From a virus (lineage: Duplodnaviria; Caudoviricetes): a stretch of 38,333 bases of DNA. Location of the stretch: IMG/VR virus record IMGVR_UViG_3300038475_000012, positions 1-38,333 of that record. The stretch is one strand, 5' to 3'. The translations under genes were made by a program, and so were the position numbers. Positions 13,845-34,687 of this stretch are shown piece by piece. Position 1 is the first letter of the stretch, and each line of letters opens with the position of its first letter. Under the pieces are notes generated by a model. It saw only the letters and a list, made by a program, of their open reading frames with translations, did no database searches and was not told where the DNA came from.

Positions 13845-14033
13845 TTATTTATAAAAATTATTACGCTCGTTATCTTCTCTTTCTTTATCTTTCATTCCAT
13901 AAGCGTCAGGATGTAGTGGCCAGTTATCACATAGCCAATCCACAAACATATCATTTCTTATGGCATCTATCAGTCCGCCGTCTTTGGGGTTTTCTGATAG
14001 GTCTGGGCATTCAACCCTCATTGGTTTAATCAT
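13845..14033 (-). CDS. Hypothetical protein
   Basis: ORF track; in the early operon. Confidence 0.6.
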   Translation of the reverse strand: MIKPMRVECPDLSENPKDGGLIDAIRNDMFVDWLCDNWPLHPDAYGMKDKEREDNERNNFYK

Positions 14034-14041
14034 AGTTTTTC

Positions 14042-14094
14042 AGCAAGGAGAGTAGTAGTCGCGAGGAGTTGCGCCTCATACTACCCTCTTTGCT
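14042..14094 (-). other. Long hairpin capped by GAGG-CGCAACU-CCUC (T-loop-like)
   Basis: AGCAAAGAGGGTAGTA pairs with TACTACTCTCCTTGCT; ends 8 nt before ATG 14033. Confidence 0.6.
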
Positions 14095-14111
14095 AGTTAC
14101 GACTTAAGATA

Positions 14112-14411
14112 GGGGGATTGATAGGATATTATATCCAGAGAGTTGGTTAAGTATTCTTTAACAGTTCGGATTTTAAGATTTCTGGTGTTATTAAAATAAT
14201 GGTTATTGATTACAATTTAGCATTTAAGATTTTTTCTAACTTTCGCTCTAACCAGCTGAGCTACGAGGTTTCCCCCGACTGGAATCGAACCAGTGACATA
14301 AAGTTCCAATAGAATTTAGATAATGGAGTTGTAAATTGCAATTTACTGCGATGTTTAAGGCACATCGTCCAAAGCCTTCTCTCTCGCTATATAATATCCA
14401 TCCAATCCCCC
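14112..14411 (-). ncRNA. ~300-nt structured ncRNA with a circularly permuted tRNA-like domain (YrlA/Y-RNA-like)
   Basis: Terminal stem GGGGGATTGGATGGATATTATAT / ATATAATATCCTATCAATCCCCC encloses T-arm, GAAA-capped acceptor stem and D-arm (14238-14305). Confidence 0.85.
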
Positions 14412-14418
14412 AATAAAA

Positions 14419-14715
14419 TTATTTATCGAAAGGATTTTCTTTATCAGTGAAATCAACGTCAAATTCCCAATTGGCTTTCTGAATTGAAGCATCTAACTTT
14501 CTGAGTGATGACGCATACTTATCATATTCTGCGGTAACTTCAGAAAGTGTCATTTTAGGAACTTGGATTGATACTTCATCTACTTGTTCAGATACATTTA
14601 CTCTACTTACTTTAGTGGCAAATATACCTTGTTCTCCCATAGCCTTTATAGGCTCTAATTGATTAACTTTTTTTTCTAGTTGCTTTCTTAGAAGCAACGC
14701 TTGTGCAATTTTCAT
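14419..14715 (-). CDS. Short DIP1984-like coiled-coil protein
   Basis: N-terminal MKIAQALLLRKQL and C-terminal LRKLDASIQKANW match my recollection of the family termini (MKLAEAL..R / LD..IQ..NW). Confidence 0.7.
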   Translation of the reverse strand: MKIAQALLLRKQLEKKVNQLEPIKAMGEQGIFATKVSRVNVSEQVDEVSIQVPKMTLSEVTAEYDKYASSLRKLDASIQKANWEFDVDFTDKENPFDK

Positions 14716-27501: not shown

Positions 27502-27678
27502 ATGAAAAAAGTATCACAGCCTGAGTTGGCTAAACCTAAAAAGAATCAAAGTCCAGGACACAAGTTTAATCAAGCCGCTCATCCTAAAAAACACACTATT
27601 AAATCAAAGAAAATTAAAAAGGTTGAAAAAAATGTAGATGTTCCAGTAATGAATAAATGGAAACCTTTTGGAATGTAA
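27502..27678 (+). CDS. 58-aa Lys-rich protein
   Basis: Translated by hand; its stop overlaps the AAACTCTATG of the next gene. Confidence 0.55.
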   Translation: MKKVSQPELAKPKKNQSPGHKFNQAAHPKKHTIKSKKIKKVEKNVDVPVMNKWKPFGM

Positions 27679-27683
27679 ACTCT

Positions 27684-28187
27684 ATGGCATCAGAAGCAAG
27701 AATAGCATCAAATAAATGGCTTAGAAGAAAAGCCAAAGGAATCAAGGGGGATGTTCTTTCAATAGGTTCAATGAACGATGACGACTGTGAAGGAGGAAAG
27801 TACAGGAAGTACTTTGAATCTGCCAAGTCCTATACGACTTCCGACACAGACTCGGTATTAGGTGAAGTTGATCTTGTACTGGATGTAAAGAAACTAGACT
27901 TACCTGATGAAAGTTACGACTGTATATTCTGTTCTGGGGTATTGGAACACGTTGATGACTTTATGCAAGGAATGAGAGAAATTACCCGTGTACTTAAAAA
28001 TAAAGGAACATTATTACTAGGCGTACCTTTCAGACAAGCAATCCATAGTTACCCGCACGACTATTGGAGGTTCACAGAATATGCGCTTGAATATATGTTA
28101 AAAGATTATAAGATTAAAGAGATAAAACCCATAGATGATAAGGATTTCCCTGCATCCTACTGGGCAATAGCTATTAAAACTCTATGA
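27684..28187 (+). CDS. Class I SAM-dependent methyltransferase
   Basis: VLSIGS, YDCIFCSGVLEHV, RVLKNKG, HSYPHDYWRFT; start moved from 27657 to the motif ATG. Confidence 0.88.
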   Translation: MASEARIASNKWLRRKAKGIKGDVLSIGSMNDDDCEGGKYRKYFESAKSYTTSDTDSVLGEVDLVLDVKKLDLPDESYDCIFCSGVLEHVDDFMQGMREITRVLKNKGTLLLGVPFRQAIHSYPHDYWRFTEYALEYMLKDYKIKEIKPIDDKDFPASYWAIAIKTL

Positions 28188-28402
28188 AAAAAGAATTAAG
28201 CTGGCAATTTATTGCCGCAGACAAGCAGGAAAAAGATGGAAGATTTATGGAAGCTACGATAATTACAGTGAATGCTGTTGATGAAAAAGGAGCATTAAAA
28301 AAAGCGAAGTCTGTCATAAAAAGGAAAATATTTTTTCTAAAATCAGTGGCAGAAATTGATAACAGGATGGATAAAATTATTGATAATATGAAAACTCTAT
28401 GA
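28184..28402 (+). CDS. Hypothetical protein
   Basis: ORF track; motif start. Confidence 0.7.
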   Translation: MKKELSWQFIAADKQEKDGRFMEATIITVNAVDEKGALKKAKSVIKRKIFFLKSVAEIDNRMDKIIDNMKTL

Positions 28403-28662
28403 AACCATTTGGACAAAGATGTATCGTAATTATAGAAAAAAACTACATCAAAGAAAAAGGTAAACAAGTTTTGTTAGATGACGGTTATTTAAAATACGAC
28501 TTACCTCAAGAGGGAAAAGTAATCAGTTCTAACTTAGAAGGAATAAAAAAAGGAATGACTGTTATTGCCAATTACCGAGGAGGGATGCCGGTTATAAAGT
28601 TAGAAAATAAGAAGTTGGTTACTGTAATTTTTGACGCTGACGATATTTATGCAGTCCTCTAG
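28399..28662 (+). CDS. GroES-like co-chaperonin
   Basis: MKPFGQRCIV...GKVI...IKKGMTV...DDIYAVL parallels GroES (KPLGDRVLV...VK.GD.V...DILAV). Confidence 0.65.
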   Translation: MKPFGQRCIVIIEKNYIKEKGKQVLLDDGYLKYDLPQEGKVISSNLEGIKKGMTVIANYRGGMPVIKLENKKLVTVIFDADDIYAVL

Positions 28663-28903
28663 ATTTAGAAAATTAACCGATAGATTCGGTTGGAAGATAA
28701 GACCGATAACTTGTATCATCAATGGTAAACTGACCAGACGACCAGACATCCTAGCAGTAGAGAATCACGGCTTATGGGAGATGACGATACCGAAAAGAAT
28801 CTACAGTTTATCTGACCAGACATATACTGATTTGTTAGGACTGCAACACCCATCTTACTTTGAGTGTGAATCTAAGGCTTATAGTAGAAAATATGGAAAA
28901 TAA
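28649..28903 (+). CDS. Hypothetical protein
   Basis: ORF track 28631..28903; first ATG at 28649. Confidence 0.55.
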   Translation: MQSSRFRKLTDRFGWKIRPITCIINGKLTRRPDILAVENHGLWEMTIPKRIYSLSDQTYTDLLGLQHPSYFECESKAYSRKYGK

Positions 28904-30596
28904 ATTTAAAGTTCTGGCTATCATTACAGACTTAATAAGCAAGAATGGTAAAAAGTTTAAAAAGAAAGGCAAGCCAATTCACGGAGCAATCGGATGGTAT
29001 CGAGTTGTTAATCCTTTAAAAAGACTAGGGGCTGATATTTCTTTAGGAATGACTGTCCGTGCTGATCCTCAAAGTGCAACAGAAATGAAAGCAAGAGGAG
29101 ATATCTGGTTTCTAAAAATGGCTGACAATGAAGGCATAGATTATATCTACGACACTCATAAGAATTTTACTGGTGCTAAACTGATTATAGACATAGACGA
29201 TGAACCAGGAGAAGTTGACGAGAATCATCCCGACTCCAAAGCGATCAAAGAAAAGAAAGATATGCGGATGAGAATGTTAAAGATAGCTGACCACATTGTT
29301 GTGTCTACGCCTAAGCTGAAAGAGTCAATTAAAGACATCAATCCGTATTGTACTGTTATCCCTAACGCAATAGATCCTGACTTGTGGAAGATAAAGAACA
29401 AGTTAAAAAAAGACGGCAAGATTAGGATAGGTTGGATGGCTAGTGCTTCTCATTTCGTTGATACGCCTATCATCAGGCCAGCAATGGAAGAAATTTTAAG
29501 TAAATACCCCAACGTAGAGTTCCATTTTGCAGGATTTACTTGGGATGAATACAAAGAAGATAGATTTTTTCATCACGTTGGAGTAAGAGATTATATGGAT
29601 TTTCCTAAATGGTATGCAAAATTAGGCATAGATATATCAGTCTGCCCTTTAAAAGACAACAAGTTTAACCAAGCCAAGTCAAACATCAAGTGGATGGAAG
29701 CCGCAATGCTAGAAATTCCAACTATAGCCAGTGATACAGAGCCTTATAAGTGCATTAAGCACGGAAAAACAGGCTATCTGGCTAAGAACTCTAATGATTT
29801 TGTTAAATACCTGTCTTATCTGATAGAAAATGAAGAAAAGAGAAGGGAGATAGGACAAAATGCCAAGCAAGCCGTCTTAGATGAGTGGACTACTGATAAA
29901 TTTACCCATTTATACAAAGATTTATTTAAAAATATAGTTGATTTTAAAGAAATAGCTGTAGTTACTGCCATTACAGGAGATAAAGATGATTTAATCGAGC
30001 AAACCAGTTATCAAGGCGTTGAATACATCGCATTTACAGACCAGAAGTCATCTCAATGGAAGACTAGAAAACCCTGCGATAAGTTCAAAGAACCAGTAAT
30101 GAACGCTAAGATACACAAGATTTTGACCCATAAATATACTGATTTGCCCTACATAGTTTGGATGGATGGAAATTGTAAGTTAAAACAAGACCCCCACGAA
30201 CTGATAAAATTGATGGGAGATGAAGACTTTGCTTTCTTCACCCACCCAGGACGAGATTGCATTTATGATGAAGCGGATACTTGTGTTCAATTAAAAAAAG
30301 GAAACCCCAAAGAACTAGCGGAACAGATAAGAGAGTATGCCAAGCAAGAACACGCTCCTCACAGCGGACTATGCGAACTGACTTGCTTTATAAGAAAGAA
30401 CAATCCAAAATCTAATTTAGAATTTGAAAAGTGGTGGGCTGAGATTTGCAGATATTCAAATCGAGATCAAGTTTCCTTTCCGTTAATTTTTAAATATTGG
30501 GAAACTATACCAGGAACTGTTGCCAAGATAGAAGGAAATAAAACCTTTGTCGGCAATGATTTCTTCGAGTATAGGAAACATAAACTCTATGACTAA
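28893..30596 (+). CDS. Bifunctional glycosyltransferase (GT-B/GT4-like + DUF616-like domain)
   Basis: IDIDD, VIPNAID, IGWMAS, KSNIKWMEAAML; C-terminal VTAITGDKD, WMDGN, HPGRDCIYDEA, RDQVSF. Confidence 0.88.
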   Translation: MENKFKVLAIITDLISKNGKKFKKKGKPIHGAIGWYRVVNPLKRLGADISLGMTVRADPQSATEMKARGDIWFLKMADNEGIDYIYDTHKNFTGAKLIIDIDDEPGEVDENHPDSKAIKEKKDMRMRMLKIADHIVVSTPKLKESIKDINPYCTVIPNAIDPDLWKIKNKLKKDGKIRIGWMASASHFVDTPIIRPAMEEILSKYPNVEFHFAGFTWDEYKEDRFFHHVGVRDYMDFPKWYAKLGIDISVCPLKDNKFNQAKSNIKWMEAAMLEIPTIASDTEPYKCIKHGKTGYLAKNSNDFVKYLSYLIENEEKRREIGQNAKQAVLDEWTTDKFTHLYKDLFKNIVDFKEIAVVTAITGDKDDLIEQTSYQGVEYIAFTDQKSSQWKTRKPCDKFKEPVMNAKIHKILTHKYTDLPYIVWMDGNCKLKQDPHELIKLMGDEDFAFFTHPGRDCIYDEADTCVQLKKGNPKELAEQIREYAKQEHAPHSGLCELTCFIRKNNPKSNLEFEKWWAEICRYSNRDQVSFPLIFKYWETIPGTVAKIEGNKTFVGNDFFEYRKHKLYD

Positions 30597-30810
30597 AGAA
30601 GAATTGAAACACAAACTATTAAATTATGATACTGAATATGTTTCTCAAGTTAGGCCTTACGAGGGACAAGTTAGAATGACTGACGGATTTGCTTTTAAAG
30701 ATGATGTTATGGATATGTTCACTGAAGAAGAATTGAAAAAATACTCTGATGTTAAACTTATTCCTTATCCGGAAAAAGGAATAAACCAGTGGAAGATAAA
30801 ACTAATTTAA
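30589..30810 (+). CDS. Hypothetical protein
   Basis: Motif start inside track ORF 30547..30810. Confidence 0.65.
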   Translation: MTKEELKHKLLNYDTEYVSQVRPYEGQVRMTDGFAFKDDVMDMFTEEELKKYSDVKLIPYPEKGINQWKIKLI

Positions 30811-30816
30811 ACTTTA

Positions 30817-31661
30817 TGAAAATTGCACTGATAAATTATGAACAAAATCTTGGAATGGACGCTATCCTTTCCAAGTACGCCCGAATGTTAGAAAGAGAAC
30901 TTATAGACCTGGGACATGATGCCTTTATAACGGGAGAGCCAGTCGAGGCGGATATAAACCATCATATCAATTATATTTCATATAAACCCAGCGGTGGGAT
31001 AGACACCACGATGATTACCCACCTAACAGGAGATTTAAGCCACAGTGAAAAAGAAAAGATAAAGATGTGCAAAGAACAGTCAAAGACTGCTTTCGGAATC
31101 TGTATGAATAAGGAGATAATGGAGAAGCTCATTAAAAATGGAATACCCAAAGAAAAACTGTCTTATGTCCTGCACGCTCACGATGGAATGGAAAGAAGAC
31201 CACGCTTGATAGCAATGATTTATAACGTTTATCCAGACGGAAGGCAAAGAGAAGATATGTTTGTAAAACTGGTAAATTCACTCAAAGATAAATCAGACTA
31301 TGCTTTTCAGATTATGGGTAAAGGTTGGAAGCCGATACTCGACTCGCTTTTGAAGAAAGGCTTACAGGTAAATTATATGGATAATTTTTACGGAGACCTT
31401 TACCAACAGATGCTGATGACTTCTGACTATCTGTTATTCACAGGGGATGAAGATTCACTGGCTCAAAGTATCGTTGATGCAACCAACGCTGGACTTAGAG
31501 TCATAGCCCCGCCCCAGAATGGATTAAAAGTAGAATACCCTTTCAGTAATCAGCAAGAATTGAATCAGATATTTAAAGATATAAACTCTAATCCCGTGCG
31601 TGATTGGACTTGGGAAAACTACACCAAGCAGCACGAAACTCTATGGAACAGATTAAAATAA
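30817..31661 (+). CDS. Glycosyltransferase-like protein (GT-B)
   Basis: MKIALI start, L..LGHD, MGKGW, SDYLL...SIVDA.NAGL.VI. Confidence 0.7.
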
Positions 31662-32179
31662 ATTTAGGAGCGGGGATAAAACCGATAGAAGGATTTATCA
31701 ATGTAGATATCGAAGACTTAGGAAAAGACTATGTAAAAGCTGATGTTAGGAAACTTCCTTTTGATGACAACTTTGCTGACTATATCCTAGCTTCTGAAAT
31801 ATTAGAACATATCCCGATAAGAGATTTGCACAGTACATTAAAAGAATGGAAAAGAGTTTTAAAACCCGGTGGAAGAATGGTTATCAAGTGTCCAGACTTT
31901 GAAGCAATGGCTAAGGAATGGTTATCAAAGTCTTTTCTTCCTCAAGAGTATTCTGAAATGGCGCAAGGGCTTTACGGAAAACAAGCAACAGAAAATGAAT
32001 ATCACCGTTCCCCTATCACAGTTCCTTTAATGCAGTATCTGTTAGGCTCACTGAAATTTAAGAGAGGCGGAATAGTTACTTACTCGAAAGGTCATAAGCA
32101 AATAAGTTATCCAGGTATCAAAGCCAATCCGAGACGAGTCTATAGGTTCGGCACAATACATTGCGATGTTATCAAATGA
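31643..32179 (+). CDS. SAM-dependent methyltransferase
   Basis: INLGAG, INVD, ILEHI, RVLKPGG, CPD. Confidence 0.88.
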   Translation: MEQIKINLGAGIKPIEGFINVDIEDLGKDYVKADVRKLPFDDNFADYILASEILEHIPIRDLHSTLKEWKRVLKPGGRMVIKCPDFEAMAKEWLSKSFLPQEYSEMAQGLYGKQATENEYHRSPITVPLMQYLLGSLKFKRGGIVTYSKGHKQISYPGIKANPRRVYRFGTIHCDVIK

Positions 32180-32667
32180 AACTTAACTTGGCTTGTGGAG
32201 CAGACTACAGAAATGACTGGATAAACATAGACAACAACTCTCAAGGTGATTTTAAAGTAGATATAAAGAAAGATATTTTAAAACTGAAATGGAAAAAGAA
32301 CTCGGTCGATAGTATTCTGGTAATTCATTATATAATGTACTGCACTCCCCCAGAATTAGATATGCTTTTAAAGAGATGGTACGGATGGTTAAAAGTAGGA
32401 GGAGAATTACAGATTGAAACAGGAAACCTTTATGAGATATGCAAGAATATTCTGAAATGCAATACGATTGAAGAATTGCACGGAAAGAATTGCTTAAGGC
32501 AGGTATTCGGATGGGAAGAAACTCACGGTCACAAATGGTTATGGGCTCCAATAGTAGTTAAAGACGCTATGGAAAGAGCAGGATTTAAAGAGGTGGAATT
32601 AGCAAAGGGATACTATCACGAAAATCCAACTAGAGATTTTGTAATTAATGGAAAGAAAACTCTATGA
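32176..32667 (+). CDS. SAM-dependent methyltransferase-like protein
   Basis: LNLACG...WINID, WLKVGG; paralogue of the upstream gene. Confidence 0.8.
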   Translation: MKLNLACGADYRNDWINIDNNSQGDFKVDIKKDILKLKWKKNSVDSILVIHYIMYCTPPELDMLLKRWYGWLKVGGELQIETGNLYEICKNILKCNTIEELHGKNCLRQVFGWEETHGHKWLWAPIVVKDAMERAGFKEVELAKGYYHENPTRDFVINGKKTL

Positions 32668-32900
32668 CTTGGGATGAATTACAAAAACCATTTATAGGAG
32701 GTCATTGGTGGTACTGGATATTAACAGGAAGAAAATACAGTTTTCCTTTTATGAAACAAGACGGATATAAGGTTTATTGGAAAGTAGACGCCAGGCTTCC
32801 TAAATACCAGCAAAAACCCATTGAATGTAAATTGCTTAATTGGATATTTTATTTAGAATGTAAAGTCAATAAATTGAGAAGGAAACTCTATGAAAGGTAA
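32664..32900 (+). CDS. Hypothetical Trp-rich protein
   Basis: ORF track; motif start. Confidence 0.65.
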   Translation: MTWDELQKPFIGGHWWYWILTGRKYSFPFMKQDGYKVYWKVDARLPKYQQKPIECKLLNWIFYLECKVNKLRRKLYER

Positions 32901-33840
32901 AAAAATAGTTGTAGTGGGCGGTGGAGGATTTTTAGGAAGCCACCTAGTCAATCATTTAATTAAAGACAACGAGGTTTTAGTTTTAGATAACCTGATTACA
33001 GGAAAGAAAGAATTTGTCCACCCCAAAGCCGAGTTTATGTGGTGCGACATCACTCATAGTGAAAACCAGCTCATTAAAATATTTAAAGGTTACGATTACG
33101 TTTTCAACTATGCCGCCGAACCTTACATCCCCGTTTCGTTTGAACGACCATTACACGTTTTCGACATCAATGCTAGAGGAGCTTTAATGGTTATGAACGC
33201 CGCCCAAGAGGCAGGAGTGAAAGGAATCCTGCAAGTATCATCAGCAGAGATTTACGGGGACGCTCCGGAACACAAGATAAACGAAGAATATCCAGCCAGA
33301 CCGCATTCAACTTACGGAGCGGCAAAACTGGCTATAGACGCATTAGTCCAAGCAAGGTGGAGAGAATCAGGTTGTCCAGTGATTGCTCTTAGACAGTTCA
33401 ACTGCGTAGGGGAACGAGAAACTCATCCTTATGTAATTCCTGAAATAATCGGACAGTTAAGTAACAGTCCAACAGGAGAAGTCAAATTAGGAAACGATAC
33501 ATTTAGAGATTTTCAATACGCTGGGGACGCTGTACGGATGGCAACGGAACTTTTGGAAAAAGGACAGTTTGGAGAAGTTTACAATATGGGTTCAGAAAAA
33601 GGAATAAAGATATACGACTTGGCATTGCTTATAGGAAATATGATGGGAATACAACCAATGATTATAAAGGACGTAAAGAGAATAAGACCGTGGGACATAT
33701 TTCATTTACAAAGTGATAATACTAAACTCTATTCGGTGATTGATTCCCGACCAGAAGTTTCTTTAGAAGAAGCTTTGAAACGGACAATCGCTGATTATAA
33801 AAAAAATGGATTCATATTTACAACTGGAAAAAGAATATAA
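32890..33840 (+). CDS. NAD-dependent nucleotide-sugar epimerase/dehydratase
   Basis: GGGGFLGS, SSAEIYG, YGAAK (YxxxK), RDF, YNMGS. Confidence 0.93.
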   Translation: MKGKKIVVVGGGGFLGSHLVNHLIKDNEVLVLDNLITGKKEFVHPKAEFMWCDITHSENQLIKIFKGYDYVFNYAAEPYIPVSFERPLHVFDINARGALMVMNAAQEAGVKGILQVSSAEIYGDAPEHKINEEYPARPHSTYGAAKLAIDALVQARWRESGCPVIALRQFNCVGERETHPYVIPEIIGQLSNSPTGEVKLGNDTFRDFQYAGDAVRMATELLEKGQFGEVYNMGSEKGIKIYDLALLIGNMMGIQPMIIKDVKRIRPWDIFHLQSDNTKLYSVIDSRPEVSLEEALKRTIADYKKNGFIFTTGKRI

Positions 33841-34687
33841 GAAGTTTGTCGGTTCAAAGTATGCGGTTAGCTGTAACAGTGGAACATCAGCCTTACATCT
33901 GGCTTTAAAAGCGATAGGAGTAGGTTACGGAGATGAAGTGATAGTTCCAGAATTCACAATGATTGCCTGCGCTTATGCTGTATCGTATTGCGGAGCGACG
34001 CCAGTATTTGTAGATTGCCGAGATGACTTGAGCATTAACCCGTATCTCATAGAAGAAAAGTTGACCGGACGAACCAAAGCAATTATGCCAGTCCATATTT
34101 ACGGAATACTGTGCGATATGAAGACAATTCTAAGCATTGCCAAAGATAACCGATTGAAAGTCGTAGAGGACGCTTGCGAAGCGCAAGGAGCAGTTTACAA
34201 GTCAGAAGCCGATATAACCTGTTACTCGTTTTATAAGAATAAGATAATCCACGCAGAAGAAGGAGGGATAGCCACGACTGACAACAAGAAATATGCTGAT
34301 AGGATGAATTACCTTAAAAATATGTGTTTTAATAAGAAACACAATTATATCCACGAAGAAATAGGATTTAATTACCGAATGCCAGACAGTCAAGCCACAT
34401 TGGCGCTACATTCGCTCCACAATTATTCACAAGAGAAGGAAAGGAGGCAGGAACAAGTTGATAAATATAATAAAAGGTTTGGTTTGAATGTAAAGAATGA
34501 CGCTAACTGGATTTATCCAATCAAGAATGCTGATAACTGGATTAAAAATTACGATGGATTATATGCTGATTTAAAAACAAGAGAATTTTTTAAGCCAATG
34601 AGCCAACAACCACCTTACTTTGATTTAAACTATAAGAATCTGAACGCCTATAGATTATCTAAGCAAGGTATGTACATAAAATTATGA
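33806..34687 (+). CDS. DegT/DnrJ/EryC1/StrS sugar aminotransferase (perosamine synthase-like)
   Basis: NSGTSALHLAL, PVHIYG, EDACEA, SFYKNK, GFNYRM; lacks the usual N-terminal segment. Confidence 0.93.
   Translation: MDSYLQLEKEYKKFVGSKYAVSCNSGTSALHLALKAIGVGYGDEVIVPEFTMIACAYAVSYCGATPVFVDCRDDLSINPYLIEEKLTGRTKAIMPVHIYGILCDMKTILSIAKDNRLKVVEDACEAQGAVYKSEADITCYSFYKNKIIHAEEGGIATTDNKKYADRMNYLKNMCFNKKHNYIHEEIGFNYRMPDSQATLALHSLHNYSQEKERRQEQVDKYNKRFGLNVKNDANWIYPIKNADNWIKNYDGLYADLKTREFFKPMSQQPPYFDLNYKNLNAYRLSKQGMYIKL

Follow-up and report, generated by a model that had tools for sequence, protein, structure and literature searches.

The DNA analyzed in this work (the window) is a complete virus record of 38,333 bp with direct terminal repeats. 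Profile searches showed that it encodes phage genes for a terminase, portal, capsid, endolysin and helicase, as well as a sugar-modification cluster. The sequencing runs that contain it are from peat metagenomes, several of which are possibly its source. A gene for a 98-aa protein (14419..14715) and, adjacent to it, a predicted structured RNA of about 300 nt (14112..14411) lie on the minus strand within a leftward run of small genes. A lysozyme-like gene precedes the pair, and SSB-like and NinB-like genes come after it. Another GC-rich interrupted hairpin is located immediately downstream of the RNA (14050-14095), ahead of an ORF at 13845-14033. Concerning the rest of the genome, methyltransferases, glycosyltransferases, an epimerase and a DegT aminotransferase are clustered between the capsid and adaptor genes (27657-34687), a cluster that is likely devoted to virion or DNA glycosylation. 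No match to an RNA-repair family appeared in a Pfam scan of 46 phage ORFs, and a promoter and terminator scan was not above chance (13 vs 8.9 ± 3). DUF6847 was found in 0/300 further genomes of the phylum of genome G001, and a host assignment is not supported by that scan.

The 98-aa ORF had been read as a DIP1984-like gene in a first-pass annotation of the window, and the family was borne out by a match to DUF6847 (PF20935) of 31.5 bits, above the Pfam cut-off of 27, which covers profile positions 66-140. The NCBIfam DIP1984 model (NF038048), whose family length is about 150 aa, scored 37.1 bits, below its cut-off of 70. There are 221 relatives of near length, in 137 clusters at 50% identity. 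Both single-module and tandem two-module architectures are present in the family. Cellular DIP1984 proteins resemble two copies of the phage module, whereas the phage protein has one, and the motifs LAEAL..R and Q.ANW are common to the phage protein and the DIP1984/DUF6847 family (PF20935, NF038048, 3KDQ). Invariant or near-invariant residues are R10, K11, R38, R72, Q79, N82 and W83; the conserved positions thus include basic and aromatic residues, and the net charge of the phage protein is neutral (15 K/R, 16 D/E). AlphaFold, with 87 sequences, predicted a helix, a beta-hairpin and a helix (pLDDT 84). The best Foldseek match was 3KDQ, a structure without known function (prob 0.99, TM 0.57, but E 0.26), followed by prefoldins, with no significant E for any match. 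A wide structural search retrieved generic helical hairpins alone (best Z 9.5), and sequence searches of the PDB reached 3KDQ as the one entry (E 0.17-1.1).

Linkage and architecture of the RNA

The RNA was delimited by folding and by the alignment of homologues, and its probable ends were placed by the closing helix, which begins at the 8th base past the stop codon, as had been described. A strand of 316 nt folds at a z score of -3.8, and 0/100 shuffles were as good. Loci were gathered from viral, metagenome, genome and phage collections. Duplicate contigs (L008, L013, L016, L018, L028, L031, L034), gene fragments without downstream DNA (L041, L042, L045-L050), loci with a short flank (L035, 23 nt; L044, 82 nt) and a partial RNA with a core-model match of 46 bits (L036) were dropped, and 36 non-duplicate short-protein loci were aligned, the phage's own RNA included. 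The RNA was downstream of the gene in 36/36 of them and in two more short-protein loci (L089 and L090), and it was located 19-21 nt upstream of the start codon instead in L006 and L052. Therefore, the RNA is present in 40/40 assessable short-protein loci, 38 downstream and two upstream, although these loci are related and the counts are not independent. Its length across the 40 loci is 256-426 nt, L053 being the most divergent, and the median pairwise identity is 0.61. The protein is also encoded, at 45% identity, in thirteen Vibrio phage records, of which the two opened, both from cultured phages, carry the RNA. A more distant 168-aa homologue in a large phage (L087/L088) shows no downstream RNA, its upstream side having been checked by the core model alone. 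When 81 sources were scanned, this model met no full RNA without the gene, a weak negative given that the RNA of L053 and, even in genome-wide scans, the upstream RNAs of L006 and L052 escape it.

These results support the dedicated protein-RNA pair that had been proposed, since the linkage is strict and independent of position, and the DNA downstream of the aligned homologues holds the RNA rather than lacking it. The DUF6847 gene and its adjacent predicted RNA are a real, widespread and conserved pair in phages and bacteria.

An RNA-first pattern scan returned five stretches, one known locus and four records (three distinct) with the pseudoknot alone; a second pattern gave two matches, both of them chance matches in coding DNA. 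In L058, L059, L060 and L061 (around 680-740), the lone pseudoknot is placed directly after the stop of unrelated phage genes without DUF6847, which were judged by eye to be structural-type and SPFH-like. It is possibly a portable module for 3'-end protection or processing.

The closing helix P1 was identified by folding and pairing counts: 14389..14411 pairs with 14112..14134 at 21/23 positions, in agreement with the terminal stem of about 22 bp noticed at first, and beyond it the purine/pyrimidine inner stem (GAGAG/CUCUC) was also seen. Positions 14379..14388 hold the AGCG side of the conserved internal loop together with the inner stem's 5' arm and pair with 14135-14142, and AGCGAG is present in 20/36 cores. 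Across homologues, the closing helix is about 30-45 bp long and contains a conserved GCGA internal loop, and its returning strand is immediately preceded by an ACC. The helix is followed by an H-type pseudoknot (14349..14378) formed by S1 (14374-14378/14357-14361) and S2 (14362-14367/14349-14354), whose loop strand 14368-14371 pairs with 14324-14327 to build a third helix, P3. The pseudoknot with the third helix beat its own 25 shuffles in 35/36 cores and all 900 in 31/36. In a sequence-only alignment, 84.6% of the cells were paired and 21/23 pairs presented two-sided changes, some of which stem from alignment register slips; 0-1 of 500 shuffles were as good, and slid controls were 35-48% paired. 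A standard kink-turn register was rejected, as it fits the phage RNA but not L007.

Next to the pseudoknot there is a 16-nt palindrome (14331..14346), a hairpin with a self-complementary 4-nt loop that is predicted to be an RNA-RNA dimer site from the covariation of the loop. Centred by the outer pairs only, the loop is self-complementary in 33/36 RNAs, with six loop types, and 4/5 held-out RNAs pass the same test and add a seventh type. The palindrome duplex is calculated at -15 to -28 kcal/mol vs 0 to -4 kcal/mol for the hairpin. Its stems hold 148 Watson-Crick, 26 GU and 0 AC pairs, by which a DNA operator is ruled out. According to Kretsch et al. (PMC12286853), a self-complementary loop marks real intermolecular kissing loops in OLE and GOLLD. 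The pseudoknot, the palindrome and the ACC anchor had been missed by the earlier reading, which had correctly pointed out that AAAUCUUAAA occurs twice in the whole window, both copies being inside the RNA.

In 24/36 RNAs (L001-L056, first 40 nt past the stop), part of the 5' arm of the closing helix can also form a local hairpin, with an energy of -6 kcal/mol or better. This hairpin is possibly a folding trap or a terminator switch, and the phage's own RNA has no local 5' hairpin of that stability.

The 3' array and the tRNA-like cargo

The strand that returns to the closing helix carries a single-stranded array of about 11 (U/G)AA units in steps of 7-8 nt (14144..14226), delimited by periodicity and alignment and predicted to be a protein-binding track, which ends in the conserved ACC anchor (14144-14147). 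In the phage RNA alone the periodicity is modest (lag 7, p 0.002 in the whole RNA and p 0.013 in the 3' linker; lag 15, p 0.009), 19 lags and two word sizes having been looked at. After excluding three near-copies, the 33 pooled homologues gave z 10 at lag 7, z 7 at lag 8 and z 12-14 at lag 15, with a flat flanking control and peaks at lags 7, 8, 15, 22-23 and 30; lags 7, 8 and 15 were picked after the pooled data had been seen. The periodicity is significant individually in 25/33 RNAs, the longest unbroken chains have 10-12 units, and other arrays are split by hairpin insertions. Spaced A's and the ACC are the nearly invariant columns of the full alignment. A GAC hairpin with a covarying 3-bp stem that closes a GACG loop was observed as a second plug-in module in the 3' array (L004, L024, L026, L027, L030, L033, L037, L040, L053).

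The heptad rhythm that had been described around the tRNA domain is consequently real on the 3' side (pooled z 10-14), where it is strong only across homologues and alternates 7 + 8 = 15 nt. The heptads of the 5' side (lag 7, p 0.015 in 55 nt) coincide with the perfect 16-nt palindrome and a pseudoknot strand, so that structure accounts for them better than an array does. Repeats on both sides of the tRNA domain are not supported.

The tRNA-like cargo (14245..14294) is permuted: a T arm (14278-14294) is followed by a loop-closed acceptor stem (14264-14277) and a D arm (14245-14263), the arrangement of YrlA. The Rfam YrlA model (RF02553) scored 42.3 bits in the phage RNA (E 3e-6), below the gathering score of 69, and 30-41 bits in six homologues. 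Energy alone does not bring the isolated phage domain into a cloverleaf fold, and ARAGORN found 0 tRNAs in the whole window, that is, no cloverleaf tRNA gene with an anticodon arm and a free 3' end. By pattern, 11 of the 40 RNAs have a permuted cargo, 4 a canonical one and 5 just a T loop, whereas 20 have no cargo. Relaxed ARAGORN searches located whole sense-strand tRNAs (tRNA-Gln, -Arg, -Phe and -Ile) inside five RNAs. Sister loci can differ in cargo, since L001 has none and L007 has the permuted form with a branch support of 99/96, and about 8 gains or losses of the cargo were counted, of which strong branches force at least 3. The tRNA mimic is therefore an optional and exchangeable cargo, and mimicry cannot be the whole function because 20/40 phage RNAs lack the T-loop/D-loop pair. 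The cargo region of some RNAs (L005, L010, L011, L017, L023, L026, L029, L043) holds anticodon-like hairpins, alone or inside whole tRNAs, in which a UUUUGGA/U loop (Gln UUG-like) is frequent.

Regarding the first-pass annotation as a whole, the ORF, the stem, the duplicated decamer and the YrlA-like domain were observed again, and the 5' heptads are better read as structure. From its interpretation, the dedicated pair, the array and the Ro60-like niche considered below remain; the two-sided repeats and a constant tRNA mimic do not.

The bacterial form and its genomic context

Downstream of full-length DIP1984 genes in Pseudomonadota, a cyanobacterium, Enterococcus, Streptomyces and genomes of the phylum of G002 there is a shorter element, about 130-210 nt in length. 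Cellular and short phage forms both adjoin an RNA with the same closing motif, which is clear in 10/14 bacterial RNAs, together with a lag 7 signal of z 5. T-loop-like hairpins recur in four cellular RNAs (L073, L076, L081, L082). In the family of G118, which includes the Moraxellaceae genome G003, DUF6847 was above the cut-off in 37/151 genomes. A strict closing-motif test was positive in 16/30 Moraxellaceae loci vs 0/600 shuffles; 10 of the 14 misses were inspected by eye, and eight of them have both arms and two have part. Some further features accompany the bacterial RNAs. A G-rich motif, GAGGGYGGG..CGGGG, often with GGUAG ahead of it, lies just 3' of the RNA (L065, L070, L073, L075, L076, L077, L078, L081), a second RNA-like 5' motif is found behind the first RNA in L081 (after 1935, gene strand), and G313 holds two tandem DUF6847 genes (L078/L080). 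In L063 (374-1402), from a Moraxellaceae genome bin, a WYL/WCX regulator immediately precedes a short DUF6847 gene with its RNA.

RtcB and/or RtcA are neighbours in 11/22 Moraxellaceae loci scanned and also in L074, and in Moraxellaceae the DIP1984 genes are often located between rtcB and rtcA. The other cellular loci examined have unrelated neighbours; the rtcBA link comes from one bacterial family and may reflect one or a few events. TROVE was found within about 4 kb in 0/20 genomes (0/5 phage records, a complete phage genome included, and 0/15 possibly incomplete cellular genomes). These data agree with the niche implied by the earlier proposal that the protein replaces Ro60, but a strict replacement cannot hold because D. 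radiodurans, used as a control, carries both the TROVE and DUF6847 families.

DIP1984 genes on Acinetobacter plasmids are labelled 'septicolysin', and DUF6847 is present on 372 plasmid records. In A. baumannii ATCC 17978, the 'septicolysin' gene ACX60_06185 is followed by a 259-nt gap and then by an RNA cyclase, and Table S4 of PMC6182133 has no sRNA row between them. In the Hi-GRIL-seq tables of strain AB5075 (PMC11472050), the plasmid DIP1984 gene ABUW_RS19620 reaches a high level (mean 982 TPM) and ranks with the commonest chimera partners, with reads that are not assignable to the RNA as distinct from the gene. An abundant unannotated RNA at the 3' end of this gene could explain its chimera frequency.

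Possible function of the protein-RNA pair

The DUF6847 protein and the RNA probably form a physical ribonucleoprotein (RNP), as judged from sequence comparison. A periodic, unpaired and sequence-poor tract is kept with one protein family across phyla, which suggests a dedicated oligomeric binder, and since the position of the RNA relative to the gene varies, the RNA is expected to act in trans. If the closing helix releases it as a stable RNA, two copies may pair by their palindromic loops, and the 7 + 8-nt AA array would be occupied by protein subunits, one module to about 7.5 nt or two modules to 15 nt. The exchangeable tRNA look-alike displayed by the complex could serve as a decoy or tether during the cutting and repair of tRNAs. 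In phages, and this is the least certain step, the complex might protect translation in the early phase of infection against anticodon nucleases of the host or other defences directed at tRNAs. If the RNP exists, a role in tRNA damage is slightly favoured because the tRNA cargo recurs and because of the rtcBA context. Function is nevertheless the weakest step of the argument, since half of the RNAs have no tRNA module, and the whole chain, from RNP to decoy or tether, is put forward as a tentative reading that falls a little short of an even chance.

The same RNP could have a job unrelated to tRNA damage, as a generic scaffold, store or sponge in which the tRNA pieces are passengers in a tolerant loop. 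The repeated loss and gain of the cargo and its absence from half of the RNAs would be expected in this case, and GOLLD linkers sometimes hold phage tRNAs too (PMC12286853). Against it, the cargo is repeatedly a form of tRNA (permuted, whole or T loop only), hairpins resembling a T loop are seen again in cellular RNAs, and the pair is located within rtcBA operons. We regard this explanation as unlikely, although it is the strongest competitor.

In type III toxin-antitoxin systems, the toxin is an endoribonuclease and the upstream tandem repeats each fold into a pseudoknot. A type III-like or abortive-infection pair, in which a toxic protein is neutralized by the pseudoknotted RNA, had been considered in the first-pass annotation, and it would account for the obligate linkage, the pseudoknot, the plasmid records and the one locus behind a WYL regulator (L053/L063). 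A protein gene adjoining a pseudoknotted RNA is indeed the shared trait (PMC13682666). Nevertheless, the proposal fails on fold and layout and is improbable: the model is a helical hairpin with no RNase fold, no known type III endoribonuclease toxin family was matched in Pfam, PHROG or NCBIfam, and the RNA has one pseudoknot instead of tandem repeats and is downstream in 38/40 loci.

Oligomeric proteins such as TRAP and Hfq bind short conserved words at fixed spacing. The array resembles their targets in its about 11 spaced units, so the protein could wrap the repeats TRAP-style as a cis-acting switch that controls termination or translation of the neighbouring genes; the position inside operons and the local 5' hairpin that overlaps the closing helix in many RNAs are consistent with it. 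However, the period here alternates 7 and 8 nt, the predicted fold is unrelated and the target looks like a stand-alone RNA. Moreover, the RNA is on the upstream side in L006 and L052, the genes downstream differ between loci, with a convergent orientation on A. baumannii and Enterococcus plasmids, a switch needs neither a dimer loop nor a tRNA cargo, and the phage RNA is without the local hairpin. This switch seems marginally less credible than the toxin-antitoxin pair.

The palindromic loop and the phage location recall OLE, ROOL and GOLLD, which are structured RNAs of phages or bacteria with covarying palindromic loops that make intermolecular pairs (PMC12286853). An RNA-only multimer of this kind, with the protein as a loose chaperone or neighbour, is very improbable, given that the present RNA is far shorter, is tied to one protein family, was not met in full without its gene by the core model among 81 sources and devotes about a third of its length to a periodic single-stranded tract. 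Their Rfam models gave no match at E up to 1 in the phage or at E 0.05-0.5 in 32 loci. None of these 32 loci had an Rfam match to the RNA scaffold, and no full Rfam family covers the RNA.

The closest known system is the Ro60 (Rsr/TROVE)-YrlA RNP. Its RNA also has a closing 5'-3' helix, in which a CGA-containing loop is conserved, and the permuted T-arm/acceptor/D-arm domain (PMC4201824), and it is likewise found in phages and beside rtcB/rtcA (PMC4201824, PMC7790460). In Salmonella, the operon is rsr-yrlBA-rtcBA, and YrlA was proposed by its authors as a possible nuclease decoy (PMC7790460). On the other hand, the partner here is a helical-hairpin protein of 98-150 aa and not a TROVE ring, the phage RNA has 250-430 nt with a pseudoknot, a palindrome and a periodic array, and its tRNA domain may be missing or take the form of a whole tRNA. 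The least credible explanation is a true Y RNA recruiting host Ro60 beside an incidental DUF6847 gene, as the YrlA-like domain of 11/40 RNAs, the CGA core near the 5' end and the GGCGAA in 3/16 Moraxellaceae RNAs, L065 and L075 are set against a linkage to DUF6847, no TROVE in the 20 genomes tested and 0/36 phage cores with GNCGAA, the core of the Ro60 motif GNCGAA(N)G (PMC4201824). The best reading is that the phage RNA works like Ro60-YrlA and yet fails YrlA membership by score, motif and partner gene.

Returning to the RNP with a tRNA-like cargo, it could represent a second, Ro60-independent class of Y-like RNPs, in which a prefoldin-shaped DUF6847 oligomer would hold palindrome-docked RNAs by a 7 + 8-nt AA track, and plug-in tRNA mimics or whole tRNAs would serve as decoys, sensors or repair platforms, in bacteria with RtcB/RtcA and in phages versus tRNA-cutting defences. 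The Acinetobacter 'septicolysin' would be its RNA-binding subunit. This broader view is held with slightly more reserve than the decoy or tether reading.

No description of an RNA partner for DIP1984/DUF6847 was found in the open literature; an anonymous earlier motif is possible, for instance among the 10,006 unnamed candidates of PMC10690425. The protein-RNA pair is apparently undescribed, and it is likely a new class of RNP. If true, a widespread protein family of unknown role would gain a class of function, and a new class of non-coding RNA would be added in phages and several bacterial phyla. What takes the place of Ro60/Y RNA in RNA-repair operons without Ro60 may also be explained in this way, and the 'septicolysin' label on hundreds of Acinetobacter plasmids is put in question. 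Finally, a natural scaffold that tolerates whole-tRNA swaps would make the role of bacterial tRNA-mimic RNAs directly testable in cultured Vibrio phages and Acinetobacter.
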